From Candidatus Poribacteria bacterium (GTDB lineage: Bacteria; Poribacteria; WGA-4E; JAJDTR01), in contig JAJDTR010000165.1 in NCBI GenBank assembly GCA_022827055.1, forward strand, positions 17,682 through 81,681: a stretch of DNA of 64,000 nucleotides. The letters are read 5' to 3'. Numbering within the stretch: the stretch's first letter is position 1; each line of letters starts with the position of its first letter. Shown here piece after piece: positions 1 to 64,000 of the stretch. The position numbers and the translations under genes were made by a program. The notes beneath the pieces are model-generated. The model saw only the letters and a list, made by a program, of their open reading frames with translations, did not search any database and was not told the origin of the DNA.

Positions 1-1
1 C

Positions 2-4366: not shown

Positions 4367-4546
4367 AATGAGAGATGATTTTCATAACTACAATGCACCG
4401 AAGCTGGGGAAAGTTGTCCAATCCCTATCTTCGGTCATTTATTTTTCAGACATAAAATATCAAATCATTGAAGTGAAATTCAAACTTATTGCCGTCATTG
4501 TTGCTTCTGATAGAGATGCTGTTCACTATGTATTTGGAGGGCGAAA

Positions 4547-4822: not shown

Positions 4823-4848
4823 CTTTTACAACTTGGAGCATATGAGTT

Positions 4849-5883
4849 ATGTCCGATAGAAAATGGATGTCATCGCGCACGGCGATTAGAGGACTGAAGT
4901 GGTTCATTGTATTATCGATCGCAGGATTACTTTTAAACTTCTTTCTTACCTCTTTTACCGAGAGTATTCGGCACCTCACCCAACTCAACCCCTCATTTCT
5001 TATCGTAGCCCTTGCACTGAACATGCTCGATTGGCTATTGGGAGGTACGCGTCTCCTAGTGCTGGCTACTCAGATTTTTCCTCAGATAGAATTCAAAACC
5101 TGCTTCAAGTCGAATCTGAGCAACGTGTTCTTGGGTGCCGTTACACCCGCTCAAACGGGAGGCGGTGCCGCTCAAATATATGTGTTGTATAAAAACGGTA
5201 TGCCATTTGCTGAAGCGACTGTGGCAAGCATTATCAGCTTTCTAGGTTCAATCTTTTTCCTGATTTCCTGTGCGCTTTATCTCATATTCTTCGGGCATGT
5301 TCCAGCTATGAACCCGTCTTTACTACTCCTCTCCCGAGTGACCCTCTTAGTGTTTTCTGCAGTCATCCTGTTATTCACAGTTGCAGTGGTCAAGCCGCAA
5401 ACCTTTGAAAATTCCACAAAACGATTCTTGAGCATTATCCCCATTTTGAAGAAATTACCGGAAAGCCGAAAATTACAATCTTTTTTTGATTCGATAAAAA
5501 AGTATCAGGACATCATGAAAATCTATGTACTGAAGGGAAAGTTGGTTCTATTAGCTGCGTTTTTGCTGAGTTCGATAACATACCTCAACAAATTCTTCAT
5601 AGCATATATCGTGTTGAAAGGAATGGGATTGGATGTTCCCTTTATCCAGACAATCTTCATACAGATGATTCTCTTCTTGATTTTCTATTTTTCTCCTACG
5701 CCCGGCGCATCCGGTGTGGCGGAATTGTCATCTGCACGGTTGATGGGCAAGATAATCCCCAAGTCATCTCAGGCAGTGTTTGCTATGCTTTGGCGCACAT
5801 TTACCCTTTATATCGGCGTCGGTGTCGGTGGAGTTATAATGCTTAGATACCTGTTGACCCAGGATAGTTCTCCCGATAAATAA
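4849..5883 (+). CDS. integral membrane protein, flippase-like / lysyl-phosphatidylglycerol-synthase TM-domain (UPF0104) family
   Basis: 344 aa with about 8 hydrophobic helices and a GAVTPAQTGGGAAQIYVLY motif characteristic of UPF0104/LPG-synthase TM domains. Confidence 0.5.
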   Translation: MSDRKWMSSRTAIRGLKWFIVLSIAGLLLNFFLTSFTESIRHLTQLNPSFLIVALALNMLDWLLGGTRLLVLATQIFPQIEFKTCFKSNLSNVFLGAVTPAQTGGGAAQIYVLYKNGMPFAEATVASIISFLGSIFFLISCALYLIFFGHVPAMNPSLLLLSRVTLLVFSAVILLFTVAVVKPQTFENSTKRFLSIIPILKKLPESRKLQSFFDSIKKYQDIMKIYVLKGKLVLLAAFLLSSITYLNKFFIAYIVLKGMGLDVPFIQTIFIQMILFLIFYFSPTPGASGVAELSSARLMGKIIPKSSQAVFAMLWRTFTLYIGVGVGGVIMLRYLLTQDSSPDK

Positions 5884-6097
5884 CGAAGGAAACGGTGCGA
5901 CAAACAAGTTGACCAATGGCGTGCAAACCGAGGGGAAAATTTCATCACTGACAGCCGTAGGATATCAAGGTTCACGCAAAGTAATGTGGGGAATGCAATC
6001 TTTTTTGACGAGATGGAAAAACAAGCCCGGTTACATGTATCCTTTCGCGCTTCAGAGGAGTTCTTCAACTCCACCTGAATAAAAAGGAAAATCCACT

Positions 6098-6307
6098 ATG
6101 ATACGGCCCTTGCTCGCCATCTTCATTTTAATTCTTCTTGGCTTGCTCCTTATAATAGGCATATTCCTGATAGTATGGGACGCGGTAAGATCCACCCCTG
6201 GTAGCGAAGATGTAAAGTTTCTAAATTCTCAGGCGTTCATCTATCATTATGAGCAAACTTGGGTATCTTCGGAATTCAAAGAAACTGAACAATGTAGGTC
6301 GGGTTGA
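6098..6307 (+). CDS. small membrane protein (69 aa)
   Basis: A single strongly hydrophobic N-terminal helix (LLAIFILILLGLLLIIGIFLIVW). No known family. Confidence 0.3.
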   Translation: MIRPLLAIFILILLGLLLIIGIFLIVWDAVRSTPGSEDVKFLNSQAFIYHYEQTWVSSEFKETEQCRSG

Positions 6308-6310
6308 ACT

Positions 6311-6710
6311 ATCAAGCGAGTGAAAAATGATTAAAGGAGATAGTATCGACGAATAGACTAGGGAAGATTGGCTGAGTGGCCATAGGGATCAAGTTAAGCG
6401 TTTTAGGGTGCGAGTCACACGGTTTTAATGTTGTAAACTGCCAATTTCCATGTAAACTTGGACGAGGAAATACCGATCCATTGATTGATGGGTGCACCAC
6501 AGAAGATGATTTATGGCACTCGTTTCCGTAAGGGCGTGGCCCGGTGCGGTTGGAAACCGCACCTACCGTATGGGGTGCGAGGAAAACCTCACCAATACTA
6601 GACGAACTCCCTTAACTTGATCCCTATGGGGAAGATTGACTGAGTGGCCAACGAAGGAGGAGCTAACCGATCAACCGAGTGAACAGCGAGGGCGGTAGAG
6701 TTCCCATAGA
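6311..6710. repeat. composite repeat region. Two same-orientation copies of the dispersed GATCAAsCGAgTGaa...GCGATAG element (6311-6345 and 6671-6700) bracket a segment. That segment is flanked by a perfect 19-bp inverted repeat (CCATAGGGATCAAGTTAAG, 6384-6402 and 6602-6620) and a 22-bp direct repeat (GGGAAGATTGrCTGAGTGGCCA).
   Basis: Read directly from the sequence. Related fragments occur at 18050, 25957, 29765, 51541, 58083 and inside the CRISPR array. Confidence 0.6.
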
Positions 6711-19407: not shown

Positions 19408-22137
19408 CTACATCGAAAGCCCCAACAACCCTCGCGTAAACTGGAAATCGGTATTCCCTTTCCCGTAGAGTTTGGGGGTATACCGGCGGGAGGCGACGTG
19501 GAGAATCACATCAAGCATCTGGCTCGAAAAAGACTCCGGCGACCAATCGTCACTGGAGGGCACCACATCGAGGTCTTCCTCGTAGATAGAACCCGTCGTC
19601 TCATCCGTCGTCACCTGAACCAGCGGAATCATGCGGTGCGATTGTAGAGGGTGTCCCACAATATGAGCCAGCACAAGGTCCACGCCGGTCGCTCCCAACC
19701 CCGTTAGGGTTTCGACCGGATGATCCGTTGGCGTTTCCATGACGTGCAGTCCTGCACTGCCTATTTCTTGTCCATAGGCAAGCGTGTTTCTTAGTTCTTG
19801 ATCCTGGAGCACCGCCTCCAAATAAACGGGTGAAGTCAAGAATGTTGCGTTGGCAGGGGCGACGACCGTGCCGCCAGCCCCGGCAACTTCCTGAGTCAAC
19901 CGTGCGAGACTCTTAGCAACCCTCTCGGTGACTTTTCCGATTGAAGTCAATCCCAGACGCAAATGCTCCAAGCCCGCGTCGGCGCGGCGGGGCACCGGCA
20001 TTGATTCCAATGCGTCTTCAAACCAGCGCTCCACTTTCTCCGTCACCGCTTCGATCCCGCCGTCCATCTGAATGCTTGCCCAGCCGTAACGGCTGCTGTC
20101 AATTCCGTGCGTTTCAAGCGCGTGCAATACATGGTCGTTGTGCGTCTTTTCACATCCGTGCTCCAAGAGCAATCCGAGGCCGACGGTCGGGTGGGTGAGA
20201 TGTCCCACGAGCGTCCGCGTGTAAATCTCCTCCGTTTGTCCGCTCGACACGCCGCAGCCCTCCGTGTGCACCAACGCGACATAGCGCGAAATCCCTTTGT
20301 CCCTTCCCAGTTCGCGGTCATTGAGACGATTGGCAATCATCTGGGCAATCTGCCCGGAGCAGAGGCTCGTCGGCAGAATCAAGCCGATCTGGTCACTGCG
20401 ATGGCTGTCTTCCACTTGAAGCGCGTGAAATGTGTGGCTCTGGACCGGTGCATCGACCTTGACGGGGATGGATGTGCCGTCTCGCATTTCGGAGACAGCC
20501 GCGACCGAATCCAAATCCGTTGGTGCCGTCTGCTTCCAATCTCTCCACAATGACACTTGGGAATGTCCCGCCCTTTCCCCGACAGACCGTTCGCCGGACG
20601 CAACATCAATCATGAGATTGAGCGTCTCCTCCCCCAGCACTTCCATGGATGTCCCGTCAAGATACGCTCCCGCGTTTACATCCATATCCTTTTCCAGCAT
20701 ATTATATCTGTCGGTGGTGGTCACGATCTTAATTGTCGGAACAAACGGAAAGTTGGTGATTGAGCCGTTGCCCGTCACGAAGAAAATCATGTTTGCCCCC
20801 GACGCCACCTGTCCCGCGATGCTCTCAAGGTCGTTCCCCGGGCTGTCCATAAAGTAGTAGCCCGGATCGGACATCAACTGGCTGTAATCTATTACGTGGT
20901 CCAAGCGAACATCGGGGTTCCGCTTCATTGCTGCGCCGATTGACTTGATGGCGATGTTGTACAACCCTCTAAAATTGTTGCCGCCGCTGGGATTTCCCTC
21001 GGCGGAGTGACCGTGCCAACTGGCGCGCTCTTTGAATCGTTCGATTGTATCCAGGAACTTCGACGCCGTCTCCAAATCCTTGACATTCTGGAGCACATAG
21101 TGTTCCGCCCCCATGAGTTCGTCCGTTTCCGCGAGGTTGGCTGCCCCGCCGTAGCGGATGACCTCTTTGGCGACATACGCGGCGAGCGGATTGCCCGACA
21201 CGCCGGAGAATGCATCTGACCCTCCGCACTGGAGAGCGATCTTGATGTTCGACAGAGGCTGTCTTGTGCGCTTCATCGCATTGACCGGATTCAGCCAACC
21301 CTTGAGGATTGCACTACCGTTCTCCAAGTTCGCGTCAAAACCGCCCCGTATGCTCAGAAAATGATGTATTACATGATCAAGTGGGTAACCCTGTTTGATT
21401 AGATAATCCTGCAGCATCCGATTCGTCACGGCTTCCGATCCGTAGTCAACGGCTAGAACCGCCCCGACGTTCGGATGAACCATGAAACCGGCGAGCGTGC
21501 GCAGCAGCATGTCGAGGTTGTTGGGCGTCCTACCCTCTCCGCCCTCGGTATGTGCCACGGCGATAACCCCGTCAATGTTTTCACAATCCGCGGCGGCATC
21601 CTTCATTCGGCTCACCAAGGCGTTGACGAAACTGGAGGTCTGCGAAGTTGTGCCCATGACCACAATGTAATTTCGCGTTCCAACGCCGCGGTCGCCCTCC
21701 CGCCGGTAGCCTTCGAAAAATTTGATGTCGTCATATCGGGACAAAGACGTACCCGGCCGGAAATTCTCCTCATCAAGATGGTACGTGATAATCTCATCTC
21801 TGAAGTTGGGCTGCGCTGGCAAATCAAAGTCGAGATGCCGCAAGGACAGCGAGTCAATCATCTTCTGATTGCACACATAGTCGCCCGGTTGAATCTGCGA
21901 GATTGCAAAACCGAACGGCAGCCCCCATGAAAGCAGTGCTTCGCTCACCGGAATTCGTTTGATAGCGAACCGATGCCCCTCCAGAATGGTGTGGGACAGC
22001 TTAAAATATTCTCCATTAAAATTTAATCCCGAATTCGCTTCCAATCGACACGTAGCGATTGCCACGTTATCGCTTGGAGCCGGCAGCCGCGCGATGTCGT
22101 TAAAGTTGTATCGTTCGTTCATTTTCCTCTTCTCCAA
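19408..22137 (-). CDS. UxaA/GarD-family (altronate/galactarate) dehydratase-like protein with an extra divergent C-terminal repeat (909 aa)
   Basis: N-terminal SAF domain, then a GD_AH_C-like core (HTEGGEG, LQCGGSDAFSG). A second divergent copy carries HTEGCGVSSG and LEHGCEKTHND. Confidence 0.7.
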   Translation of the reverse strand: MEKRKMNERYNFNDIARLPAPSDNVAIATCRLEANSGLNFNGEYFKLSHTILEGHRFAIKRIPVSEALLSWGLPFGFAISQIQPGDYVCNQKMIDSLSLRHLDFDLPAQPNFRDEIITYHLDEENFRPGTSLSRYDDIKFFEGYRREGDRGVGTRNYIVVMGTTSQTSSFVNALVSRMKDAAADCENIDGVIAVAHTEGGEGRTPNNLDMLLRTLAGFMVHPNVGAVLAVDYGSEAVTNRMLQDYLIKQGYPLDHVIHHFLSIRGGFDANLENGSAILKGWLNPVNAMKRTRQPLSNIKIALQCGGSDAFSGVSGNPLAAYVAKEVIRYGGAANLAETDELMGAEHYVLQNVKDLETASKFLDTIERFKERASWHGHSAEGNPSGGNNFRGLYNIAIKSIGAAMKRNPDVRLDHVIDYSQLMSDPGYYFMDSPGNDLESIAGQVASGANMIFFVTGNGSITNFPFVPTIKIVTTTDRYNMLEKDMDVNAGAYLDGTSMEVLGEETLNLMIDVASGERSVGERAGHSQVSLWRDWKQTAPTDLDSVAAVSEMRDGTSIPVKVDAPVQSHTFHALQVEDSHRSDQIGLILPTSLCSGQIAQMIANRLNDRELGRDKGISRYVALVHTEGCGVSSGQTEEIYTRTLVGHLTHPTVGLGLLLEHGCEKTHNDHVLHALETHGIDSSRYGWASIQMDGGIEAVTEKVERWFEDALESMPVPRRADAGLEHLRLGLTSIGKVTERVAKSLARLTQEVAGAGGTVVAPANATFLTSPVYLEAVLQDQELRNTLAYGQEIGSAGLHVMETPTDHPVETLTGLGATGVDLVLAHIVGHPLQSHRMIPLVQVTTDETTGSIYEEDLDVVPSSDDWSPESFSSQMLDVILHVASRRYTPKLYGKGNTDFQFTRGLLGLSM

Positions 22138-25905: not shown

Positions 25906-25956
25906 TGGTGTGCGATCATTCGTAATGGATAGCTTTTTTTACGTATTACGATCAAG

Positions 25957-26015
25957 CGACTGAATTAGGAGATCAAGCAAGTGAATAGCGCGCGCGATAG
26001 TAAATCCTGCGATAG
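25957..26015. repeat. two tandem copies of the dispersed GATCAAGCGA...GCGATAG element
   Basis: gatcaagcgactgaattaggag / atcaagcaagtgaatagcgcgcgcgatagtaaatcctgcgatag. Confidence 0.45.
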
Positions 26016-51540: not shown

Positions 51541-51580
51541 ATGTGTATGTAGGATCAAGCGAATGGATAATGAGCGCGAT
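51541..51580. repeat. solo copy of the dispersed element (GGATCAAGCGAATGGATAATGAGCGCGATAG)
   Basis: Almost identical to the reverse-strand copy at 58083-58125. Confidence 0.5.
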
Positions 51581-51600
51581 AGAGATCCCCATGCCCCGCT

Positions 51601-52515
51601 CTACGAAGAACGCAGAACAGCGTCCACCCTCTCATGTGGTCTGAGCCGTGGATCCACCTCAACGCCGACAGCATGAGCCAAGGCGAGGTGAATCTGTCGG
51701 ACACCCTCCGTCAGAGCCGCAGGACCAGGCTGCAAGATGTAGGTCGATTTTACCTCGTAGACGTGTCCTTGACGCACGGCAGTTATTCCCGACCAACCGG
51801 GTCTAGCCGTGATACGATCTTTATTGACCTTGACGCCGCACCAAGAAGCGATGACCACCTCCGGATCACGAGAGACAACGTTACCGGGATCAAGGATACG
51901 GTCGCGTGCCAACGGTTTCTGGCGTAGTTCCGGGAATACCGGTTCCCCGCCCGCCAACTCGATGAGTTCCTCTACCCACTGAATGCCGCTAATTAACGGT
52001 TCGTTCCACTCCTCGAAGAAAACCCGCGGTCGTCGCGGAAAGCGCCGTGCCGACCCTCGAATCTCCTCCAACCCACTCGTCAGCGCCGAAGCGAGCGCTT
52101 TGCCTTTCTGCGGTGTCCCCACCAAACCAGCCAAGGTCAGAATCATCTGCAGAATCTCGGCGACGCTTCTTTGATTGAAGGCGAGGACGGTCAATCCTTT
52201 TTGGATCAACTCCCGCGCGATTTCGGCTTGCAGATCGGAAAAAGCCAGCACCAAGTCCGGGCGTAATTCCAAAATCTTGTCTATCTTTGCGCTGACAAAA
52301 GCCGAAACCCTCGGCTTGGACCGCGCCTCCTTGGGACGAACCGTGTACCCCGAGACTCCCGCGATTCGGTCCTCCTCACCCAAAAGATAAAGAGTTTCCG
52401 TGGTTTCGTCCGTCAAGCAGACAATGCGGCGAGGATAGCCGCCAAGGCTGTCAACGCTGAGTTTTTCCGGCAATGCCCCCGTCTTTATTCCCAATCTGTC
52501 TTGCTCGTTATTCAT
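51601..52515 (-). CDS. ABC-type substrate-binding protein of the siderophore/cobalamin (BtuF/FecB-like, class III) fold. No obvious signal peptide
   Basis: RIVCLTDETTETLYLL...DLVLAF pattern typical of class III periplasmic binding proteins. Confidence 0.55.
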   Translation of the reverse strand: MNNEQDRLGIKTGALPEKLSVDSLGGYPRRIVCLTDETTETLYLLGEEDRIAGVSGYTVRPKEARSKPRVSAFVSAKIDKILELRPDLVLAFSDLQAEIARELIQKGLTVLAFNQRSVAEILQMILTLAGLVGTPQKGKALASALTSGLEEIRGSARRFPRRPRVFFEEWNEPLISGIQWVEELIELAGGEPVFPELRQKPLARDRILDPGNVVSRDPEVVIASWCGVKVNKDRITARPGWSGITAVRQGHVYEVKSTYILQPGPAALTEGVRQIHLALAHAVGVEVDPRLRPHERVDAVLRSS

Positions 52516-53242
52516 TCGCTTGATCGTAATGCCTCAACACCGTCTCCAGCGCCTTCAAGTGAGCGGCGGTGCGCTGGCGCATTGGTAAACTCGTAGGTGT
52601 TTCGCAAATCATCACGTGGTCGGAGTGAAAAGCGAGTAGGTAAGGGGTAAACCCTTGTAGCCCCCAGCCGGGGTCGACCTTGAACACACCGTCAGCGATC
52701 AGCAAGTCGTTTTCATCGTGCTCCCGATCAATCGGGCAAACGCTCTCGACGTTCTTGGTGACCTCCGGCCCGATCCAGTTTTCACTTTTTCGTCCCTCAT
52801 AGAAGTAAAACCCCGCGGCTTCCCAATCCTCGTGAAAATCTATTGCGAAATCGAATCGTTCGCCAGCCACCGCCGCTTTGACGAGACGAGCTTCCTCTGG
52901 CGGATTGTCGACTTCAAACACACGGTTGAGATCTATCCCCGTTCCGTTTTCGCGGGTATCGTGGACATAGCCGAATGGATTGATGCAAGGCAGGATGAGA
53001 AACCCGAAGTTGCTATAGCGTGTTGCGTCGTATTCGTACAAGAAGCGCAGTACCGATTCCGGTCCCGCCGGTTCATCTCCATGCAGCCCCGCGGTTATTA
53101 GGACCTGACGCTTCGCACGAGGACCTCCCCCTACCATCAGACGATAGATGGCGCAGCCATCAACCTCTCCAAGGGCATCTTGCTCTAGGTTGGGCAAGCT
53201 TAATTCGCGTAATCTCCGCTCAAAATCATCATAATCCCGCAC
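52508..53242 (-). CDS. zinc carboxypeptidase-like protein (M14 / AstE-AspA family)
   Basis: HGDEPAG zinc-binding motif and NPFG motif. Confidence 0.55.
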   Translation of the reverse strand: MRDYDDFERRLRELSLPNLEQDALGEVDGCAIYRLMVGGGPRAKRQVLITAGLHGDEPAGPESVLRFLYEYDATRYSNFGFLILPCINPFGYVHDTRENGTGIDLNRVFEVDNPPEEARLVKAAVAGERFDFAIDFHEDWEAAGFYFYEGRKSENWIGPEVTKNVESVCPIDREHDENDLLIADGVFKVDPGWGLQGFTPYLLAFHSDHVMICETPTSLPMRQRTAAHLKALETVLRHYDQANE

Positions 53243-54724: not shown

Positions 54725-54822
54725 TTCGGTCCTCCTCTTCATCACGTCATTCGTGGCTACTCTGGTAGGCGCGGTTTCCAACCACGCTGAATGGTTAGAC
54801 CTTCAGTCCCCCTCCATCGGGG

Positions 54823-55011
54823 ATCAACCGAGTGAATAACGAGTGCGATAGCTAATCTTCTTAGGCCTCCAGAAGATACACACCTTTCGGGAATAGAGCA
54901 ATGCTTAAATGGGATATGCCGTTGGAGTCGAGTTAAAAGTTACATGCTTGCTACAGCGATGGGAATTCTATCACCTTCGCTATCAGGATCTCTATCGCGC
55001 TCCTTAATCAG
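54823..55011. mobile_element. MITE-like element copy i (189 bp) inside a CRISPR repeat
   Basis: TIRs are aTCAACCGAGTGAATAACGAGTGCGATAG and CTATCGCGCTCCTTAATCAGTCGCTTGATC. Confidence 0.6.
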
Positions 55012-55122
55012 TCGCTTGATCTGTTCGTTCGTTTAATCTCAGTTGATCCTTTTCGTCGGGGTATAGGTTGCTACCCGGTGCAGGAATTTGTATCAACTCG
55101 CCTCAGAATCTTTCAGTCCCCT

Positions 55123-55326
55123 TTTCGTCGGGAATCAACCGAGTGGACAACGAGGGCGATAGCTAATCCTCTTAGGTCTCCAGAAGATACACGCCTTTCG
55201 GGAATAGTGCAACGCTTAAATGGGATACTGCCATTGGAGTCAAGTTACAATTACATGCTTGCTACCGCGATGGGAATCCTATCGCCTTGGGATCTCTATC
55301 GCACTCGCTATGCACTCGCTCGACTC
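55123..55326. mobile_element. MITE-like element copy ii (about 204 bp) inside a CRISPR repeat
   Basis: About 88% identical to copy i. The right TIR is degenerate and is followed by TTTTCATCAG. Confidence 0.55.
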
Positions 55327-55468
55327 TTTTCATCAGACTCAACCCTCGTAGGCGGGGCATCCTGCCCCGCCTGAAGATGCCCTTCCTAATCAGGGCATGA
55401 GGTGTCACAATCCAAATCGCTCTGATCCGCTCCGGGCCAATCCACTTTCAGTCCCCTTTTCATCGGGG

Positions 55469-55573
55469 ATCAACCGAGTGGATAGCGAGGGCGATAGTAG
55501 TTTTCCTCCCTAATCACACACTTTAGGTCTCTCTTTGGAATCGCTATCGCGCTCCCTATCCGGTCGCTTGATC
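55469..55573. mobile_element. MITE-like element copy iii (105 bp short variant) inside a CRISPR repeat
   Basis: TIRs are ATCAACCGAGTGGATAGCGAGGGCGATAG and CTATCGCGCTCCCTATCCGGTCGCTTGATC. It is flanked by TTTTCATCGGGG and TTTTCATCGCGG. Confidence 0.6.
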
Positions 55574-55674
55574 GCTTTTCATCGCGGCATTCACTGCTAC
55601 AAGTGCGCGGCGCGCTTAGGGAGGTGGGAAAAGTGTTCTTTCAGTCCCCTTTTCGTCGGGGCATAGGTTGCTAC

Positions 55675-56079
55675 GACCTATCGATCAATAGCCGAAACTC
55701 CTCTAAACATAGAAACCACTTGCGTTTGTAAGTCATGCTTGTAATTTTGACACATCGGCACTGCCCTGTCAATTTCAAACGGCGCAGGCGCCAAGTATTC
55801 AGTGTTCATCAGTGTTTGACGGCTTAGCGTGTGGATTTTCGAAAATCGTTAGTTTGTCCCCAAACATCGCTCGGGGCACACGCAACCTCGACGTAGACTG
55901 CCGAAAATCGGGTTGAAATTCACGTGAAATGTAGTACCATCCCGCTGCGTAAATCTTTATTATCCACGGTCGGGACCAAGTCCTGTCTGCGTTCCACGCC
56001 TATATTGGGATTTCGCAAATCGACCCCCGTTTTCCGCAGAAAACGGATTTTCGAAACGCTTCGATTTTAATTGGATGCC
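55675..56079 (-). promoter_or_regulatory. CRISPR leader region with repeated palindromic GATTTTCGAAAmyC / CCGTTTTCCGCAGAAAACGG motifs
   Basis: Lies between cas4 and the first repeat. It is AT-richer than its surroundings and contains three related motifs. Confidence 0.45.
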
Positions 56080-56652
56080 TCACAACACATCGGCGCAGAA
56101 TCGCCGAAATTCGCATTCGACGCATTTTCCGCGCTGCGGCGTCGGTGGCGGCATCCATTCATCCGATAGCATCCGTCGGATGTCCCGGAGCGCGCCGCGC
56201 GTTTTCTCGCGGAGCGACTCTGATATTGCAATCGGCGTGATTCGCCCCGTGGGAATCCGATAGATAAACCCCTGAGTCACCGCGACGCCGAGACATTCCT
56301 CCACCATCATGGCGTAGGCTGTTAACTGGCATTTCGCGTTCAGGTCGAGTCGTCCTCTCGTGCTCTTGAACTCCACGGGGAACGCCCCGGTTTCCGTCTC
56401 GATAAGCAGGTCGAGCACGCCGGTCAATCCCAGTGACTCGGCATGGAGCGGAACGTGGAATTTCCGGCTGCCAGCCTCAAGCCCGTAACAGGCAAGCGTC
56501 CGGCGGCGCTCCAAGACGCTTAACACCTCGTGTTCGTCCGCGCCAAGCTCCATCGGGTGCGTCATCGGACGGTGTACCGGAGTGAAGTAGGTGTGGTAGA
56601 CCACCCGCGGACAGTAGAAATACTGTTTAATGTCGCTGACTCGTATATTCAT
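56080..56652 (-). CDS. cas4: CRISPR-associated exonuclease Cas4
   Basis: N-terminal Cys (YFYCPR), RecB-nuclease motifs (VLDLLIETE...EFKS, QLTAYAMM), and a C-terminal CVECEFRRFC cluster. Confidence 0.85.
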   Translation of the reverse strand: MNIRVSDIKQYFYCPRVVYHTYFTPVHRPMTHPMELGADEHEVLSVLERRRTLACYGLEAGSRKFHVPLHAESLGLTGVLDLLIETETGAFPVEFKSTRGRLDLNAKCQLTAYAMMVEECLGVAVTQGFIYRIPTGRITPIAISESLREKTRGALRDIRRMLSDEWMPPPTPQRGKCVECEFRRFCADVL

Positions 56653-56900
56653 CTTTCAGCATCCCCGATAATAGTGCGTTGGTCGAAATCCTTCGCACAC
56701 ACGCCGATCACCTCTATCTTTCCTTCGGCGGCTCCAAATTCTCGTGTCAGTTTCGCGTCCAACGCTCGGCGGCGCGTGGTATTAATGTCCCCCAAGAAAG
56801 CGCTGTATTGAATCCGTTTCAAACCGTAGTCGAGACAGACATCGGCAATCTTTTTGCGTATTCGGTCTTCGACGATGTCATAAATAACGTATGTGTACAT
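56649..56900 (-). CDS. cas2: CRISPR-associated endoribonuclease Cas2
   Basis: 83 aa, MYTYVIYDIVEDRIRKKIADVCLDYGLKRIQYSAF. Confidence 0.85.
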   Translation of the reverse strand: MYTYVIYDIVEDRIRKKIADVCLDYGLKRIQYSAFLGDINTTRRRALDAKLTREFGAAEGKIEVIGVCAKDFDQRTIIGDAER

Positions 56901-56906
56901 ACCACG

Positions 56907-58016
56907 TCACCAACTCGTCACCAACGGCTGATAATCCCTCTCTCCGCGCAGGAACATCGCCAGATGACGCGCCTGAATCTGGATGATATTGCACAGCTTC
57001 TGGTCTTTACGCTCGAACCGCTCCGTCTCCTGAAGCCGTTCCAGAATCCGGTCGGCGAGCGAGCGCCGCGTGCCTTTGCTCAAATACCGCTGCGTACCCG
57101 CGTCCGGATCCGCATCCGGCTTTGCCGACTGGTGCGCGGATTTGGCGGCGTCGTCATCCGGCTCCTCCCATTCGACCTTAAACTTCTTGTTAATCATCGC
57201 AAACACCACCCGGTCAACAATCGGCTGGCGGAACTCCTCGATGAAATCCAACACCAGCGACGGTTTGCCCGGGCGATCGACATGGAGAAATCCCGCGAAC
57301 GGTTCCAGCCCAGCCAGCGCAAGCGCGCTCCACACTTGGGAATAGAGCATCCCGTAGCCGTAATTGAGCAGCGCGTTCACATCGTCCGCCGCCCCCTGAT
57401 GTTCCCGCGTCGTGAATCGCCCGGTGGGCAGCAGCCGTTGCACACACTCCCAGTAGAGCGCTCCCGCGCGTCCCTCAAGGTTGAGCAACGTGGTTCGGAG
57501 GGCATCAATCGGCGACTCCCCGTTCTCCTCAACCCTCGGCGCTTGGAGAATCTGAATATCGCCCATCAGCTCCTCAATCTTGGTAGCCCGCTCCACCAGT
57601 TCGTCGTACCTCTTGGGCGCGCTTTTCTTGCGGTACTTGCCGAAATAGCGCACCAAGTTTATCTGATTCCGCAGCTTCCCCGCCGCGAACCGCTTGGCAA
57701 TCTCCACTCCGCGCTCATCGTGATACGCGGCGAGTTGCTCCCGCCGGGAGATGACCGTCGCCGTCAACGAAGGGCTGTTGAGTTTGGCGTACGGTTTGCC
57801 GTTGAAACTGAGAAACGAGATTTCAATCCCGCGCTCCGTGCACGCCTCAATCAGGTCCGACGACAAGCTAACCCCGCGCGACGCAATAACAATCTGATCC
57901 AGATCCATGAGGGCGTGCTCCTCTTTCCCCCGCTCCTCATCGCGATAGCGCACGCTGACGCGCTCCGAACGTTTGCCGAGGGAGGTGCCGAAGTCGGAGA
58001 TAGTGAGTTGGTTCAT
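56907..58016 (-). CDS. cas1: CRISPR-associated integrase Cas1
   Basis: Cas1 fold signature regions (ISDFGTSLGKRSERVSV..., NALLNYGYGML, and the E/H/D catalytic region). Confidence 0.9.
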   Translation of the reverse strand: MNQLTISDFGTSLGKRSERVSVRYRDEERGKEEHALMDLDQIVIASRGVSLSSDLIEACTERGIEISFLSFNGKPYAKLNSPSLTATVISRREQLAAYHDERGVEIAKRFAAGKLRNQINLVRYFGKYRKKSAPKRYDELVERATKIEELMGDIQILQAPRVEENGESPIDALRTTLLNLEGRAGALYWECVQRLLPTGRFTTREHQGAADDVNALLNYGYGMLYSQVWSALALAGLEPFAGFLHVDRPGKPSLVLDFIEEFRQPIVDRVVFAMINKKFKVEWEEPDDDAAKSAHQSAKPDADPDAGTQRYLSKGTRRSLADRILERLQETERFERKDQKLCNIIQIQARHLAMFLRGERDYQPLVTSW

Positions 58017-58082
58017 GTTTTTTTCCTTATAAAAAACTTCAGTTGTTTAGTTCAGTCTAGAACTTACGCGACAACAGGAGTT

Positions 58083-58125
58083 CGTGTTCGGAGATCCCTC
58101 GCTATCGCACTCATTATCCATTCGC
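58083..58125. repeat. solo copy (reverse orientation) of the dispersed element in the cas1 / brnT divergent promoter region
   Basis: The reverse complement is GATTAAGCGAATGGATAATGAGTGCGATAGCGAGGGATC. Confidence 0.5.
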
Positions 58126-58268
58126 TTAATCGTAAGCCGTGACACGTATCAATAGGAAGTACCAGAATTGGCAACGATTAGAGATTACTGAGTTTAAAGT
58201 GCCAACCTCAGTTATTTACATATTTTTATCTTGACATCTGTATATACACATTGTATACTATATGTGTC

Positions 58269-58544
58269 ATGGATTTTGAATGGGATTCAATGAAGAACCA
58301 ACATAACATCGAAAAGCACGGCATTGATTTTGCGAATGCGGTGCGCATATTTGGGAATCCAACGTTTGAAGTAGTAGACAATCGCCGCAACTATGGCGAA
58401 AAACGAGTTGTCGCAATGGGCACGGTTGACGACATCATACTTTATGTCGTATACACCACCCGAGGCGGCAATCGACGGATTATTTCAGCAAGGAGGGCAA
58501 ATCGCCGTGAAAGAAGAACGTACCGTGAAGGTTTCTCTCAATAA
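58269..58544 (+). CDS. brnT: BrnT-like toxin (DUF497/COG2929 ribonuclease toxin)
   Basis: MDFEWDSMKNQHNIEKHGIDFANAVRIF...RIISARRANRRERRTY is a conserved BrnT pattern. Confidence 0.7.
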   Translation: MDFEWDSMKNQHNIEKHGIDFANAVRIFGNPTFEVVDNRRNYGEKRVVAMGTVDDIILYVVYTTRGGNRRIISARRANRRERRTYREGFSQ

Positions 58545-58884
58545 CCTCCCGAAAAATACACAAACTGACTGGGAAAAAGTCAAAAATATGACCGAGGCCG
58601 AAATTAATGCGGCAGCGGCATCCGACCCCGACGCCCAACCCACCGATGAGGCGTTCTGGAGAGATGCCCACGTCGTGATGCCGCAGCCTAAACGCGCCAT
58701 CTCAATGCGAGTTGATAGCGACGTGCTTGCGTGGTTCAAATCGCAAGGACGCGGTTATCAAACACGCATAAACGCCGTATTGCGAGCGTATATGGAGGCA
58801 CACCGTTACGAAGATAAATCAGCTACGAATGCAACTGTAATCGCTGAAACTTCGAATCAACCCGAATCGGGTAAGGAAGCATAG
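58507..58884 (+). CDS. brnA: BrnA-like antitoxin (CopG/RHH family)
   Basis: AISMRVDSDVLAWFKSQGRGYQTRINAVLRAYMEAH. A GTG at 58507 follows an aggaggg RBS and overlaps the brnT 3' end. Confidence 0.6.
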   Translation: MKEERTVKVSLNNLPKNTQTDWEKVKNMTEAEINAAAASDPDAQPTDEAFWRDAHVVMPQPKRAISMRVDSDVLAWFKSQGRGYQTRINAVLRAYMEAHRYEDKSATNATVIAETSNQPESGKEA

Positions 58885-59022
58885 CAAGAAAGATGCGTCG
58901 CGGCAACCCGCCACGGACGAGGCAAAACGTTTCTCACTGAAGAATTCGGTTATCACTTGGATTAGCCATGTCGCTCACTATCTATCTTGATACAGTGCTG
59001 GACAGCCGAAATGGCAAATACT

Positions 59023-61407
59023 TTAGTCAAATGTCAATCCCGCCTCCGAGTCGTACGCGGCTTTAACGCGATACGGTTCTTTCCGTTCCCGGGGCAAGAT
59101 TCTATCATCATTTCTTAGAGCGTGATATCTCCTCCAGCTTATCGGGACTAACAGTTCTCCAGCGCGAATTGGCTCATCGTCGCATACGGTTTGGTATTCT
59201 TCATACATTGAATCTGGTAGCACCTCAAGCCCATCAAACGCCTTGAAAAACAGGTTCTCAAGTTCCTCATTTGCCGAAAACGGACGCATTGTTCTCACAC
59301 AAGTTTTGTCAAAGTCTGCGGCGGCGATTTCGTATTCCTCTCGCCAGCGCGCTTCAATCTCACCGCTGTAAATCTCATCCAGCCATCCTCCAATCGCGCT
59401 TTCGTCAATCGGTCGTTCATGTTCGCGCTCAAGAATTACAATCGTCTGTTCCACCAGTTCTGGGTCATAAATCTTTTGCCCGTCGTCGGGTTGGCGGAAC
59501 ACGTGAACTGGTGCAAGGTCTCTCTGTTTCCTGCCGCGGTTAATACGACCAAAGCGTTGCACGAGCGCTTCTAAAGGCGCCGGTTCTGTATAAATTGTGT
59601 CGAGGTCAATATCAAGACTAACCTCAACTACTTGCGTCGCAACGAGAACAATCGGATAGCGCGCGTCGCTTGTTGAGCCTGTCGCTTCTCTGATAATTTG
59701 CTCTTTCTTGGAACGGTCTCGCATGTTAAACCGACCGTGCAAGAGTTCGGTTCGGATATTTACCTCATTCAATTCGTTACGAATCCGTTCATATGCTTCT
59801 TGTGCGCGATCGACCAAGTTGCACACGACCAACACCGATTTCCCTGCCTTCGCATCTCCTGTCACCTTCGCTAGAATTGAATCATCTAATAACTCGCCAT
59901 CGTGTAGCATGAGCCGGTGACGCACGAATTTTTGAAATAACTCGGGAGCAGCTTCAACTGTAGTTGGTGTGTCTAAGGCTTCGGATAGCCACCCTTGAAT
60001 CAGTTTTGGAAAGGTCGCCGACATAACGAAGAAACGCGCGTTGAAATTTACCCTCAAGTATTCGATGGTCTTGAAAATCATAGCCAGTCGACCGACTTCG
60101 TAGGCGTGGATTTCGTCGAAAATGAACGCCGCGTTGTGGTAATCGGTAAGCAACGCCTCGTAACCCTTGAGGCGGTACATCCCTTTAAGCATCTGATACG
60201 GGCTAAACACACGGACGGGTGGATAATTCAGTCGTGAGAGATTCCGCGCCCGTCTCGCAGTGCGTGCCGCCGCTTGTGAGGAATAGTCCCTTTCCAAGAG
60301 ATCTCGGTAAAGAGCAAGTAGACTGCGCCCGTGCTGTAAACCTACACGCTTTGGAAAACTATCATTTAATCGCTTTTGCATAGCATTCATACTTGCTTGG
60401 TAGGGGAGCGTATAAAAAAGTCTGGGCAAACATCCTGTGACTGAAGATTGACGCGCCGCCCAGAGCAGCGCAGCTTCGGTTTTTCCGCTACCGGTAGGCG
60501 CTACCAAAAGTGCTGAATCATTAATTGTTGCGGCTTTTGACTGGTGTTCAAAGAGACCTTCCGGGGACAGGTCGCGGCTAGCTAAAATCGTGTCCGCGTG
60601 AAACTGAGCAAGTGGTATCGGTCCCGCGTGAGCCGAAGCGCTGTGGTCTGCATTGATAATGTAACCACGTACCGTAATTCCCGGCACAACTGCATGAGGT
60701 GCCTCGCCGTCCTCGAAACCTCGATTGAGTCTGCGGTAAACCCTCAGCCAATGCCGAATCCTTTCAACCCCACGCTGCTGAATGGACTCAATTGCAGTCT
60801 GCTCCGCCGGGAGTGTTGGTTCAAAGATGCCGCAATCAATGAGCCCAAGGTCATCTCGCCATGGGATAGCACATTCTGACAACCAACGCCACAATCCGTG
60901 CAAGCCCCCCTCTTTAAGAGACGCGAGTTGTGGTTGCAACGGATCATCGTCGTCGAAGTCAGGGATGGGGTAAATCCGCTGAATTTCCTCGAAATCCCGA
61001 TGATGCGAGACAATACTGGCAACAAGCCACTGCTGTTCTTCTGTCGAAAGATCACCTGCAATCCAATCGACAAACGCGAGCGAAAACACCTCGTGGCGGT
61101 GTCCCCAGACGGTTCCGTCAGAATGGAGCTGGGTTTGAAAGCTGTCCAATGCTTTTCCAAAATCGTGAAGAAACGCCGACCAATAAAGGACGTGCCATAA
61201 ACGCGGCACATTTAGCTGCTGCGGCAAGTTTGGGCGCAACCGGATAAACTCTGCTAACCGTGACAACACGTTCCATGTATGCCGGGCTAACGTCTCCGGT
61301 TGACCGTCTTCACCCAATTCCGCACTTTTTGCCCATACACCGTCTAACCAATCTGGACTTATTGAAGGCTTGCTCGCGACGGATTTAGTCAGCGGTTGCA
61401 TCTTCAT
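59023..61407 (-). CDS. cas3: Cas3 helicase-nuclease with N-terminal HD domain
   Basis: HD motifs (HTWNV, LHDFGKA, HRHEV) followed by DEAD/DEAH helicase motifs (APTGSGKTEAALLWAA, FDEIHAY). Confidence 0.9.
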   Translation of the reverse strand: MKMQPLTKSVASKPSISPDWLDGVWAKSAELGEDGQPETLARHTWNVLSRLAEFIRLRPNLPQQLNVPRLWHVLYWSAFLHDFGKALDSFQTQLHSDGTVWGHRHEVFSLAFVDWIAGDLSTEEQQWLVASIVSHHRDFEEIQRIYPIPDFDDDDPLQPQLASLKEGGLHGLWRWLSECAIPWRDDLGLIDCGIFEPTLPAEQTAIESIQQRGVERIRHWLRVYRRLNRGFEDGEAPHAVVPGITVRGYIINADHSASAHAGPIPLAQFHADTILASRDLSPEGLFEHQSKAATINDSALLVAPTGSGKTEAALLWAARQSSVTGCLPRLFYTLPYQASMNAMQKRLNDSFPKRVGLQHGRSLLALYRDLLERDYSSQAAARTARRARNLSRLNYPPVRVFSPYQMLKGMYRLKGYEALLTDYHNAAFIFDEIHAYEVGRLAMIFKTIEYLRVNFNARFFVMSATFPKLIQGWLSEALDTPTTVEAAPELFQKFVRHRLMLHDGELLDDSILAKVTGDAKAGKSVLVVCNLVDRAQEAYERIRNELNEVNIRTELLHGRFNMRDRSKKEQIIREATGSTSDARYPIVLVATQVVEVSLDIDLDTIYTEPAPLEALVQRFGRINRGRKQRDLAPVHVFRQPDDGQKIYDPELVEQTIVILEREHERPIDESAIGGWLDEIYSGEIEARWREEYEIAAADFDKTCVRTMRPFSANEELENLFFKAFDGLEVLPDSMYEEYQTVCDDEPIRAGELLVPISWRRYHALRNDDRILPRERKEPYRVKAAYDSEAGLTFD

Positions 61408-62110
61408 TTCCTACAAAGTTGTGGAAAATCAATCCGAGATGGCTGCCTCGGTACTCAGGCACCAACGGGTCAATCCAATGTGTGGAGTTCCCATTTGAAG
61501 GTGTCACTCGATCAGTGAGAACCGTATATTGCGAAAACTGTGGTTGACGGTTTCGATTGTAGTCTAGATAGCGCGGCAGCAAAACCGATACTCCCCGCCC
61601 CAATCTTTGCCCCATTTGGTGCGGAATAATTGTGTGCTCAAAGTAGACATTCTCGCTCTGCTGCAATTCAACCACGTTGATTTCTGTGTAAGTGAACAAG
61701 TCTTGCGACGTGCCCAAGGACACGGCATACCGAGGACTTCGGAAAGCCGTTTCCCAGTCGGGACGGTTGATGTAGAGCGTGAGACGCGGCTGAAATAGCA
61801 ATTCGCGTTCAAAGGGGTTTACATTGCCCTCAAGGGCATTAGGGATTTGAGTACCGGGAAACTTGCTACGATTAGATTTAGGTGGTGCTAACACAATGAT
61901 GTGTTCAATATCCCTAACGTGCCCCTGATGCGTGAAATGGTAAGCGAATTGAACCCCGCTTGAATCGAACCATTCCCCTAGTGCGCTACAGATGTGCCCG
62001 TAGATTGTCGCGGGCGGTGGCATCTGAAAACTGGGATGAATCTGTAGCATGAAATGTGGATAGCGAAAAGACGTAGTAAGCCCTTCCGCAACGATTCTAA
62101 GGACTTTCAT
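61385..62110 (-). CDS. cas5: Cas5 (type I-B-like)
   Basis: Internal start MKVLRIVAEGLTTSFRYPHF...PPPATIYGHICSALG, a typical Cas5 N-terminus, preceded by a gggag RBS. Confidence 0.7.
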   Translation of the reverse strand: MKVLRIVAEGLTTSFRYPHFMLQIHPSFQMPPPATIYGHICSALGEWFDSSGVQFAYHFTHQGHVRDIEHIIVLAPPKSNRSKFPGTQIPNALEGNVNPFERELLFQPRLTLYINRPDWETAFRSPRYAVSLGTSQDLFTYTEINVVELQQSENVYFEHTIIPHQMGQRLGRGVSVLLPRYLDYNRNRQPQFSQYTVLTDRVTPSNGNSTHWIDPLVPEYRGSHLGLIFHNFVGNEDATAD

Positions 62111-62177
62111 AGAAAACTCCCGAGTTAAGAATGAGAAACCGAGTTTTTTCGAAAAAAGCTCGGTTTCTTCTTTGCTC

Positions 62178-63266
62178 TCAATCCAACCAATTCGCATTTT
62201 CGGCTTTCTGTAAATCTTCCACAAACCCTTTGAATGCATCGCGTGGATGGCTCACGGTGAGTTTCGCCCCGCAAGCTGCAAAATCGGTTTCTTCATTCAA
62301 TGCCTTCAAAAGTTTAAGCCGTTCATCATCAAGATATCCCTTGACCCAACCAACGTAAATGTCTGAGAGAATGTCGTCCTTGAAAACTGCCAGAGCCTCC
62401 GCAAGCGCATCAACCTTCAATTCAGGCTCGCCGTGCTGATTGGCGCCGACGATGTGGCCGAAAATGTGATTGCCCCCTTTGGTCACTGCCCATATAACCA
62501 ACGCGGGACTTACATCTGTGTAGTGTAAAGACTGTTTCGCGCCGCCTTCAAGGTGTGCGAGACCATCCAACAGCGTGCTGATACGTTGAATCCGAGAGTC
62601 AAACGGTAGTCGATAGGCACTTTCGTCCTCCAAGTGTTCAAGGTTTTGGTCTTTCGCCAATTCAATGCGAACATCGTCAAGATTGCGAAAACCGGTTTTT
62701 TGCCGATAGGAAAATGTCCCTGCTGCATGCAAATCAAGCGAAAGCAGCCCTTTTAGGGTTGTACGATAGAATTGATGTTCGTGCGGAACCGGATCACCGT
62801 CATGCCTTGACATCGTACCGAAATCGTCAACAACGCGTGTCGGCGCAATAGAGACTAAGGTACTCACGCGAAAAGGTGAAACGCGAGTTACTGCGTCTGC
62901 GGTTTCAGTCTCGTTCGCTCGCGATTCGTCTGCTTCTCGTTTCTCCTTAGCGGAAGCCCTCTTTGATGGGGCTCGCATGTAGCCGAAAAGATCGTCGTCC
63001 CAATATTCAATAGGGTTGGCATCGGTATAAGCCACCTTTTCCTCCCGGTAGATTGGAGCAGGTGTCCAATTGAATTCACTCCCGTCTAAGGTTGTACGCA
63101 GCCAGTAGCGAAACGATTGCGCTGACACATAAGGATAAGCGCCCTGCCGTGTGCGAATCATCTTTACGCCTACAGTGTTATCGTTACGCGCACCGGGAAT
63201 GCTTCCGAGATTGTTGAGCGCGGATGCTGGAGCGTCAATGAGCATCAAACCAGTTGCAAAAGCCAT
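62178..63266 (-). CDS. cas7: Cas7 backbone subunit (DevR/Csh2-like)
   Basis: LIDAPASALNN and YVSAQSFRYWLR motifs resemble the Cas7 RRM core. An aaggagg RBS is present. Confidence 0.65.
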   Translation of the reverse strand: MAFATGLMLIDAPASALNNLGSIPGARNDNTVGVKMIRTRQGAYPYVSAQSFRYWLRTTLDGSEFNWTPAPIYREEKVAYTDANPIEYWDDDLFGYMRAPSKRASAKEKREADESRANETETADAVTRVSPFRVSTLVSIAPTRVVDDFGTMSRHDGDPVPHEHQFYRTTLKGLLSLDLHAAGTFSYRQKTGFRNLDDVRIELAKDQNLEHLEDESAYRLPFDSRIQRISTLLDGLAHLEGGAKQSLHYTDVSPALVIWAVTKGGNHIFGHIVGANQHGEPELKVDALAEALAVFKDDILSDIYVGWVKGYLDDERLKLLKALNEETDFAACGAKLTVSHPRDAFKGFVEDLQKAENANWLD

Positions 63267-63299
63267 GATATGAACCTCCTTACTATCCGTAATGATGTT

Positions 63300-64000
63300 T
63301 TAACTGTTTTCAGTCTTGTTCTCTTGGGCGGTCTCCTCAACCACATCGGGATTTTCGCCCAACCAGCCTTTTTCATGCAGCCGTTCGACCATTCTGATGA
63401 AGACAAGGTCACGCGCTAACCACCAGTCTAGCTTCGCCAATTCATAGCCCTCTTCAAAAACCTCAATGTACGGGTCAAATGTGATAATCGGGGCATTGCC
63501 ACGGTTGACATATTCTAGATTGGTGCGAATCAAGAGCGTGCGTACATTGTTCGGGTTTCTCTCACGAAAAAAATTAAGAAAGAAACGTTTGTCATTCTGG
63601 CTACTGACATAGTCCGCAAGTCTGTCGCCCATCTTGCGAATTTCCTCAATTCGTTCTTTTTCCATGTTATATACCCTCCTTAAAAAAGATGCGGTGATGC
63701 CCCACGAAACCAAATCGATACCACCCGTTAATCCGTATTCTGCCCGTGGATCGCCCTGTTCGGTGCGAGCGTAACGGAGTGCTCGACGCAAAAAGTAAGT
63801 TTGCAGGAACGTTTTTGCCTTGTCGGGTAGAAGAAACGTCCCATCATACAGTCCTAGAATATCCTCATAAAGCCAATTCCGACGCGGGTGAAACGGCTTG
63901 TTATCCTTCTGTCCCCTCTTTTTCTGCGGCTCCACTTCCCACGCCCGATGGACGATTCTGCCCCACTGGAATCGGTAATCAGGCTCCCCCATTTCACGTA
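63300..64000 (-). CDS. probable Cas8-family large subunit, C-terminal (small-subunit-like) part; reading frame remains open to the window edge
   Basis: Alpha-helical region directly upstream of cas7-cas5-cas3, matching the cas8b-cas7-cas5-cas3 order. No diagnostic motif, so this is a contextual call. Confidence 0.4.
   Translation of the reverse strand, partial: REMGEPDYRFQWGRIVHRAWEVEPQKKRGQKDNKPFHPRRNWLYEDILGLYDGTFLLPDKAKTFLQTYFLRRALRYARTEQGDPRAEYGLTGGIDLVSWGITASFLRRVYNMEKERIEEIRKMGDRLADYVSSQNDKRFFLNFFRERNPNNVRTLLIRTNLEYVNRGNAPIITFDPYIEVFEEGYELAKLDWWLARDLVFIRMVERLHEKGWLGENPDVVEETAQENKTENS

Follow-up and report, generated by a model that had tools for sequence, protein, structure and literature searches.

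In this study, we analysed a stretch of 64,000 nucleotides (nt) from contig JAJDTR010000165.1 of a Candidatus Poribacteria bacterium, an uncultured sponge symbiont (this whole stretch is referred to as the window), and focused on the CRISPR-Cas locus at positions 54801-64000. Our results indicate that this is very probably a complete and apparently intact subtype I-B system of the Cas8b1/Cst1 variant ('I-B1' or 'Tneap'), the array of which has been invaded by miniature transposable elements with inverted repeats (MITEs). Genes were taken from a listing of the open reading frames (ORFs) in the window and searched with the Pfam, NCBIfam and PADLOC profile libraries. Public contigs and loci fetched for comparison are named L001, L002 and so on, with contig positions given after a colon.

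Gene content and subtype of the locus

On the minus strand, the order is the 3' part of cas8b, then cas7, cas5 and cas3, followed by a brnT-brnA pair on the plus strand, and then cas1, cas2, cas4, the leader and the array. All genes named in the first-pass annotation of this DNA were recovered at their positions and on their strands through the ORFs and the three profile libraries. The cas genes are as follows.

63300-64000, minus strand: cas8b1 (cst1), 3' part, residues ~268-499 of 499; PADLOC Cas8b PDLC01387, E 4.9e-72
63300-63665, minus strand: predicted cas11 (small subunit), 121 amino acids (aa), internal start within cas8b; conserved AAGGAGG and ATG
62178-63266, minus strand: cas7b (cst2/DevR family), 362 aa; TIGR02585 170.5 bits (cutoff 72.75); PADLOC Cas7b 7e-52
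61385-62110, minus strand: cas5b (cas5t), 241 aa; TIGR01895 103.2 bits (cutoff 96.7); PADLOC Cas5b 1e-54
59023-61407, minus strand: cas3, N-terminal HD and superfamily 2 (SF2) helicase, 792-794 aa; PADLOC Cas3b PDLC01761 4e-193
56907-58016, minus strand: cas1, 369 aa; PF01867 1.9e-70; TIGR00287 229 bits; best PADLOC model Cas1b PDLC02066
56649-56900, minus strand: cas2, 83 aa; PF09827; TIGR01573; best PADLOC model Cas2b PDLC02077
56080-56652, minus strand: cas4, 190 aa, last gene of the adaptation operon; PF01930, PF12705; TIGR00372 128.6 bits; best PADLOC model 'Cas4_II' PDLC02083

With the exception of cas8b, which runs off the window, the cas genes here all have complete ORFs that are colinear with their homologues. 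The locus is assigned to I-B1 because the profiles for Cas7 (TIGR02585), Cas5 (TIGR01895) and Cas8b1 (TIGR01908) all pass their curated cutoffs and because no cas10, cmr or csm gene was found in 54801-64000 by the Pfam, NCBIfam and PADLOC searches, and the subtype proposed at first pass is thereby upheld. The best PADLOC models for Cas8b, Cas7b, Cas5b, Cas3b, Cas1b and Cas2b are all of the I-B type. As in type I systems generally, Cas3 carries both an SF2 helicase and an HD nuclease, and as in I-B1, cas1, cas2 and cas4 adjoin the leader and array, gene order not being a defining feature of this variant. The N-terminal HD domain that had been read as fused to Cas3 was detected with Pfam Cas3_HD; DEAD, Helicase_C and Cas3-like_C_2 domains follow in the Pfam results, and TIGR01587 and TIGR01596 are likewise above their cutoffs.

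The part of Cas8b encoded in the window aligns to positions 267-475 of the 477 in PDLC01387 and its frame stays open at the window end, so that about 267 residues are missing from the window. The 5' part of the gene had been expected just past position 64000 and is indeed supplied by L001, a contig of the Logan assembly of SRR16351679, which is identical to the window over an 851-nt overlap. The complete Cas8b (L001:88-1587) has 499 aa and scores 31.9 bits against TIGR01908 (Cas8b1/Cst1; cutoff 19.4). It has more than 1,200 homologues in databases, of which the named ones (NCBI, JGI) are Cas8b1/Cst1. In a Cas8b scan of a genome collection, the nearest loci were on Candidatus Poribacteria chromosomes represented by metagenome-assembled genomes (Cas8b identity 75-89%); the values for L013 and L014, both metagenome contigs, are 93% and 90%, respectively.

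No separate cas11 ORF is present in the locus, as expected for I-B1. Inside cas8b, an AAGGAGG sequence is found 8 nt upstream of an in-frame ATG (MEKERIEE; window 63665), and this Shine-Dalgarno sequence and start codon are conserved in every Poribacteria locus, with a similar site in distant relatives. Cas11 is probably made from this conserved internal start, with its translation read here from the start signals; internal translation of Cas11 has been reported for I-B1 and other I-B/C/D systems (PMC13199841).

The 362-aa and 284-aa proteins of the first-pass annotation are both Cas proteins by profile search, namely Cas7 and Cas5; however, the length given for the second did not stand. The longest cas5 ORF reaches position 62239, a start that the homologues do not use, and Cas5 has 241 aa rather than 284, since MKVLRIV, at residue 44 of the long ORF, is where the PADLOC match and every homologue start. 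A length of 241 aa is also called in L001, L002, L005 and L013.

Two other classifications were considered and rejected. Subtype I-D, of which an HD-bearing Cas10d, Csc2/Csc1 and a helicase-only Cas3' are the hallmarks, was raised by the repeat end GACTGAAAG. It is excluded by the profile results, as the HD domain is part of Cas3 itself, the models matched by Cas7 and Cas5 are those of I-B and not Csc2/Csc1, and TIGR03158 stays under its cutoff. A type III system, which a cas10 or cmr signature would have indicated, has no such gene, nor a csm gene, in 54801-64000, and beyond cas6 the relatives have a WYL regulator and a TonB-dependent receptor. Among the relatives, an adjacent III-B module was seen solely in Thermanaerothrix (L008).

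Gene order and the brnT-brnA pair are inherited

The textbook order of the adaptation genes is cas4-cas1-cas2. The unusual order cas1-cas2-cas4 recognized at first pass was confirmed by the profile searches, and a tblastn synteny map showed it in every Poribacteria locus fetched. In Thermanaerothrix solaris (Chloroflexota) the genes run cas8b-cas7-cas5-cas3-cas6-cas1-cas2-cas4, and the same best models are found there (Cas1b PDLC02066, Cas2b PDLC02077 and Cas4_II PDLC02083). Because it is common to all related Poribacteria loci and Thermanaerothrix, the order is not a local rearrangement; it is a property of this adaptation-module clade and an inherited lineage trait.

The gap between cas3 and cas1 contains three features.

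58525-58884, plus strand: brnA antitoxin, start approximate, ORF open from 58393; PF14384 66.2 bits (cutoff 26.1)
58269-58544, plus strand: brnT toxin (ribonuclease) of a type II toxin-antitoxin (TA) pair; PF04365 94.9 bits (cutoff 34.5), full profile
58102-58131, minus strand: solo MITE terminal inverted repeat (TIR) between brnT and cas1; direct reading and TIR scan

The two genes overlap by ~20 nt with the toxin gene first, as in the BrnT/BrnA family of type II TA pairs to which they are assigned by their profiles, and their starts are probably internal codons of the listed ORFs. A promoter-like sequence, TTGACA-17-TATACT, lies ahead of brnT at 58231-58259. In both L005 and L013, the pair is complete, likewise reversed and in the same gap, with BrnT 97% identical. 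Remnants or orthologues of brnA are found in the cas3-cas1 gap of L002, L009, L014, L016, L019 and L021, the pair being decayed in about half of the related loci, and in some loci other TA-like small genes fill the same gap (DUF5615/PIN-like in L009 and L021). Since the pair and the gene order are common to loci that are only 75-93% identical in Cas8b, both are old, and the position of brnTA between cas3 and cas1 is a lineage trait of about a dozen related Poribacteria loci. The solo MITE end that had been noted between the effector and adaptation genes is present and has the same flank (GTGTCACGGCTTAC) in L013:16929.

Some further observations were made around cas1. In most relatives (L002:17490-18056; also L003, L004, L005, L014, L016 and L021) cas1 and cas2 are separated by a 188-aa gene that resembles IS200-like Y1 or REP-associated tyrosine transposases (RAYT-like), with 70 bits on NF047646 (under the cutoff of 80) and short hairpins on its flanks. 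In L009 (8233-8799) this gene precedes cas6 instead, and it is absent from L013 and from the window, in which 6 nt separate cas1 and cas2. At window 56905-56925, a perfect 11-nt tandem duplication (AGTTGGTGACG twice, minus strand) spans the cas1 stop codon and sits exactly where the relatives have the RAYT-like gene; for the idea that it is a footprint of RAYT excision, we found no evidence either way. Finally, a 487-aa ORF is antisense to cas1 (window 56679-58142, plus strand), with a similar antisense ORF in L002, and is most likely a by-product of codon and GC bias and not a gene.

Erosion is confined to the array

The array occupies 54801-55674 and consists of four repeats and three spacers. 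One 37-nt repeat is intact and the other three are each split by a MITE.

55675-56079, minus strand: CRISPR leader, 405 nt; four ATTT(T/G)CGAAAAT-like motifs (repeat family D5); promoter-like site at 55744-55772
55638-55674, minus strand: repeat 1, the sole intact one, GTAGCAACCTATGCCCCGACGAAAAGGGGACTGAAAG (= GTAGCAACCTATGCCCCGAYGAAAAGGGGACTGAAAG); Rfam CRISPR-DR10 28 bits, below the gathering threshold
55601-55637, minus strand: spacer 1, 37 nt
55445-55600, minus strand: repeat 2, split; degenerate 5' half 55575-55600, MITE-a 55468-55574 (107 nt), intact 3' half 55445-55467
55409-55444, minus strand: spacer 2, 36 nt
55110-55408, minus strand: repeat 3, split; degenerate 5' half with a 52-nt insert, MITE-b 55133-55325 (~193 nt), intact 3' half 55110-55132
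55075-55109, minus strand: spacer 3, 35 nt
54801-55074, minus strand: repeat 4 (terminal), split; 5' half 55049-55074, MITE-c 54822-55048 (227 nt), degenerate 3' half 54801-54821

The array had been described as collapsed, and this is borne out by the comparison with the relatives, the arrays of which have from 8 to more than 70 repeats. The promoter-like site in the leader reads TTGACA-17-CAAAAT with an upstream TG, and both this site and the leader motifs are conserved across 12 Poribacteria leaders, including those beside I-D-like effectors; a regulator or an integration host factor may bind to these palindromic motifs. A 4-bp GC hairpin forms in the repeat, with the 8-nt tail ACUGAAAG, the expected handle, behind it, and the hairpin stem covaries between CCCC/GGGG and CCGC/GCGG (the latter in L009, L019 and L020). 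Repeat 1 was the only repeat matched in Rfam, below threshold as listed above. The insert in the 5' half of repeat 3 (window 55326-55408) lies between CCTGAT and CTGAT and contains a GC-rich hairpin (GGCGGGGCAGGATGCCCCGCC); a weak sub-threshold Rfam match of this region to PhotoRC-I is probably due to chance.

The small array raises the question of whether the locus as a whole is decaying or being remodelled, as the first-pass annotation proposed, in which case brnTA and the gene order would be recent disruptions in a system heading to loss. Besides the three MITE insertions and the low repeat number, the solo MITE end in the brnT-cas1 gap would agree with this, as would the close relative L021 (Cas4 96% identical), in which the 726 nt after cas4 contain MITE-rich DNA only and no leader or repeat. 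However, we consider this explanation unlikely. The cas ORFs are all full length and colinear, brnTA and the gene order are old by the comparison of Cas8b given above, BrnT has kept 97% identity, L013 shares the solo MITE end together with its flank, and the leader with its promoter-like site is intact and conserved. The claim of decay or remodelling thus stands for the array, which is eroded and contains MITEs; it does not fit the gene part, where all ORFs are full length and the order and brnTA are inherited. Only the array shows erosion.

The adaptation genes belong to a cassette shared with other effector types

Through homologues of Cas4 we found that brnA, cas1, often the RAYT-like Y1 gene, cas2, cas4, the conserved leader and the same repeat family occur together as a cassette. 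It is joined to I-D-like effectors (Csc2/Csc1/Cas3d) in L017 and to I-A-like effectors (Cas3/Cas8a/Cas7a/Cas5a) in L018 and L021. L017 and L018 (positions 1-6600 of each) come from one metagenome and share 98-100% DNA identity from cas1 onward and one repeat consensus, with unrelated DNA upstream. Between L021:1-6600 and window 56080-58900, brnA, cas1 and cas2-cas4 show 89-90% DNA identity without homology in the effectors, and the L021 cassette is as close to the window as are the cassettes of the I-B1 relatives. The gap between cas3 and brnA thus appears to be a recombination boundary between the adaptation cassette and interchangeable effector modules, and the comparison points to recent swapping of effector modules at this boundary. 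That modules are shuffled in the evolution of CRISPR-Cas systems is well established. In this respect, the split into an interference and an adaptation module seen at first pass is right in a deeper sense, as the same cassette follows I-A-like and I-D-like effectors elsewhere.

The same findings could be taken to mean that the adaptation genes serve another effector system (I-A-like or I-D-like, for instance) and only happen to lie beside the I-B1 genes. That they form a separate transcription unit and that the best Cas4 model is 'Cas4_II' and not an I-B model would be in line with this, as is the presence of the cassette beside I-A-like and I-D-like effectors in other Poribacteria. This is nevertheless improbable, slightly more so than decay of the whole locus, since I-B1 effectors directly precede the cassette in Thermanaerothrix and at least nine Poribacteria loci, Cas1 and Cas2 both have I-B models as their best matches, and no further effector genes were found in 54801-64000 or in the DNA upstream of cas6 in the relatives, where the WYL regulator and TonB receptor are located.

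MITEs insert at one position of the repeat

The split repeats have the structure ...CCCGAYGAAAAG, MITE, CCCGAYGAAAAGGGGACTGAAAG, which amounts to a 12-nt duplication. Over 156 nt, MITE-b shares 90% identity with MITE-c. The junction between repeat and MITE, GAYGAAAAG/GATCAAG (GAYGAAAAGGATCAAG), is also found in two other Poribacteria genomes from other samples, and within arrays the position of the MITE in the repeat is always identical (three times in window 54801-55600, once in L013 and at least five times in L016). The copy in L013 is at repeat 9 (20233-20308), where the contig ends, and in L016:9559-10420 several MITE copies follow one another in tandem with the 12-mer alone between them. 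A TIR scan placed members of the family GATCAAGCGA..GGATAG.GAG.GCGATAG at scattered sites in Poribacteria DNA, next to various flanks; solo or paired TIRs of the same family are found elsewhere in the window at 6669-6698, 25950-26000, 51553-51588 and 52504-52525 (intergenic). The flanks of these copies in the window recurrently end in TTAC, GTAG or AACC with no transposase gene nearby, and no TIR-flanked transposase was found in the window or in the fetched loci. The RAYT-like Y1 gene was considered as a mobilizer of the MITE and judged unlikely, as Y1 elements leave no long target duplications.

These observations suggest that the MITE family has a site preference for the repeat hairpin, because random insertion in the 73-nt repeat-spacer unit would make even the clearly independent coincidences very unlikely. 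Gene conversion could spread a MITE within one array but not across genomes with unrelated spacers. An artefact of assembly or chimerism, produced by dispersed repeats (MITEs) and CRISPR repeats, is hardly conceivable as the source of the split repeats and the tiny array, although repeats and MITEs are classic causes of misassembly and related contigs end at such places (L013 inside a MITE and L001 inside the 3' end of cas6), because the independent short-read Logan assembly of run SRR16351679 (L015, same strain) shows the leader, repeat 1, spacer 1, repeat 2 with MITE-a, spacer 2 and repeat 3 with MITE-b base for base, the shared junction comes from other genomes and samples, and 12-nt duplications around each MITE are a product of transposition and not of misjoining.

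Taking these findings together with those on the cassette, we tentatively propose, while regarding it as somewhat short of an even chance, that the MITE homes to the 12-nt repeat-hairpin site CCCGAYGAAAAG, duplicates it and re-inserts into the copies, so that arrays fill up with MITEs step by step and become shorter while the cas genes are spared, and that brnA(T)-cas1-cas2-cas4-leader-array is a mobile evolutionary unit exchanged among I-B1, I-A-like and I-D-like systems of one symbiont community. Our literature search on MITEs targeting CRISPR repeats or on Poribacteria I-B systems found no direct precedent; a sequence identity between IS1000 and CRISPR repeats is on record in Thermus.

The hairpin and handle survive 3' of the MITE in each split repeat, and the terminal C of the MITE even lengthens the hairpin stem. 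The 5' ends of CRISPR RNAs (crRNAs) may therefore still be processed.

Completeness and expected mechanism of the system

The first-pass annotation had also placed cas6 just beyond position 64000. In L001, the 87 nt ahead of cas8b encode a Cas6 C-terminus, VGKNATFGLGRYRIL (VGKNATFGLGRYRILHG...), that abuts cas8b, and the relatives carry a WYL-WCX regulator gene and cas6 upstream of cas8b (Cas6 PADLOC 1.7e-112, Pfam PF10040), so that this expectation is supported. A full cas6 is present upstream in all eight Poribacteria I-B1 loci with upstream DNA (L002-L005, L009, L013 and L014; frameshifted in L014). The DNA beyond cas6 in the relatives encodes the WYL regulator and the TonB-dependent receptor mentioned above.

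A number of points weigh against a complete and intact system. The window itself lacks cas6, the part seen in L001 is limited to the last 28 codons, and in the closest relatives (L002, L013 and L014) a duplicated 3' fragment of cas6 lies beside cas8b with the full gene 1-2 kb further up; the completeness of cas6 in this genome is therefore something we infer. No sigma-70-like promoter for cas1 was found in the brnT-cas1 gap. A MITE of 130-250 nt would lie between the spacer and the next hairpin in the crRNAs and might affect their assembly into Cascade. The 22-nt parts of all three spacers next to the protospacer-adjacent motif (PAM) had no match in IMG/VR, and a BLAST search with the window array and the 29-repeat array of L002 against 50,697 phage records returned nothing, so that no PAM or target can be given. 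Lastly, Cas8b1 and Cas7 have no PDB relative detectable by sequence, and the mechanism therefore rests on family-level knowledge.

The L001 contig breaks inside the 3' end of cas6, at a point that would fit a cas6 3' duplication like that of the relatives. For the genome's own DNA past position 64000, exact look-ups with Cas7 and Cas4 sequences gave the short Logan contigs L001 and L015 only, and Cas8b scans of genomes and metagenomes gave relatives and no longer contig of this genome. The relatives have a second hot spot for insertions at the cas6-cas8b junction (L013:9083-9741, L014:9189-9776 and L002:8756-10000). The insertion between the full cas6 and its 3' fragment in L013 is a PIN/VapBC-like pair, and a sigma70_r2-like ORF is found at this junction in L014. 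A search for self-targets of the spacers within the window gave none.

By analogy with characterized members of the family, Cas6 would cut the precursor crRNA at the base of the CCCC-GAYGAAAA-GGGG hairpin, leaving the 8-nt 5' handle ACUGAAAG, upon which Cas8b1, Cas11, Cas7 and Cas5 would assemble as Cascade on the crRNA. The HD-helicase Cas3 would then degrade PAM-flanked DNA targets, and Cas1-Cas2, assisted by Cas4, would insert new spacers beside the leader. Guides processed from the split repeats would have 5' ends derived from the 3' half-repeats and 3' ends carrying a half repeat and a MITE. The locus is expected to be transcribed as two units, because the reversed brnT-brnA pair sits between cas3 and cas1. 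The immune memory is small and possibly impaired, since no more than four repeats and three spacers are left in the array and a long insert would remain on the 3' ends.

Comparison with known systems

The locus shares with the I-B1 systems of Thermotoga maritima and Clostridium thermocellum the protein families (Cst1/Cas8b1, Cst2/Cas7, Cas5t and HD-helicase Cas3), the effector order cas8b1-cas7-cas5-cas3, the lack of a separate cas11, for which an internal start in cas8b1 is predicted here, and an 8-nt crRNA handle of the (A)nUGAAA(G/C) type. It differs from them in the order cas1-cas2-cas4, in the division of effector and adaptation genes by brnTA and in a Cas8b that is too diverged for a PDB match. 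The I-B1 variant has recently been reconstituted from T. maritima, where cas6 follows cas3 (PMC13199841, Figure 1 legend). In Poribacteria, cas6 is instead upstream of cas8b and behind the WYL regulator gene, whereas L008 and L011 place it after cas3 as in T. maritima.

The order cas1-cas2-cas4 is also that of type II-B systems (cas9-cas1-cas2-cas4, for example in Legionella). In agreement with this likeness, Cas4_II is the best-matching model for Cas4, and the top PADLOC matches of Cas1 include a Cas1_II model. However, no cas9 is present here and the top Cas1 and Cas2 models are I-B, so that the likeness is limited to the adaptation-module clade.

With regard to TA modules in CRISPR-Cas loci (type II TA pairs in defence islands and CreTA of haloarchaeal I-B systems), the pair described here is likewise found within an I-B locus and kept across species. 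CreTA is an RNA pair regulated by Cascade, whereas BrnTA is a protein-protein type II pair; it has decayed in about half of the related loci and is thus not indispensable. By analogy, brnTA could act as an addiction or backup module of the cas locus.

Insertion sequences and MITEs have been reported to inactivate CRISPR-Cas systems, mostly by insertion in cas genes and at varied sites (Sheng et al. 2023, PMC10359306). As in those cases, transposable elements are found inside a CRISPR-Cas locus here; however, the cas genes are spared, and in three genomes the MITEs, some of them in tandem, occupy one identical position of the repeat and are accompanied by a 12-nt duplication.

Implications

With this study, a well-resolved I-B1 locus becomes available for a sponge symbiont that has not been cultured. 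The odd gene order and the embedded TA pair are stable lineage traits, which is a caution against reading oddities of synteny as degradation. L017 and L018 provide a clean natural case of recent module shuffling within one metagenome, and this shuffling makes one ask how three types of Cascade can all work with a single repeat and handle. If the proposed preference of the MITE for the repeat hairpin is true, CRISPR arrays would be eroded by a transposon without damage to the cas genes, and invaded arrays might still give guide RNAs, as the hairpin and handle are regenerated 3' of each insertion. If confirmed, this would be a new way in which mobile DNA blunts CRISPR memory.

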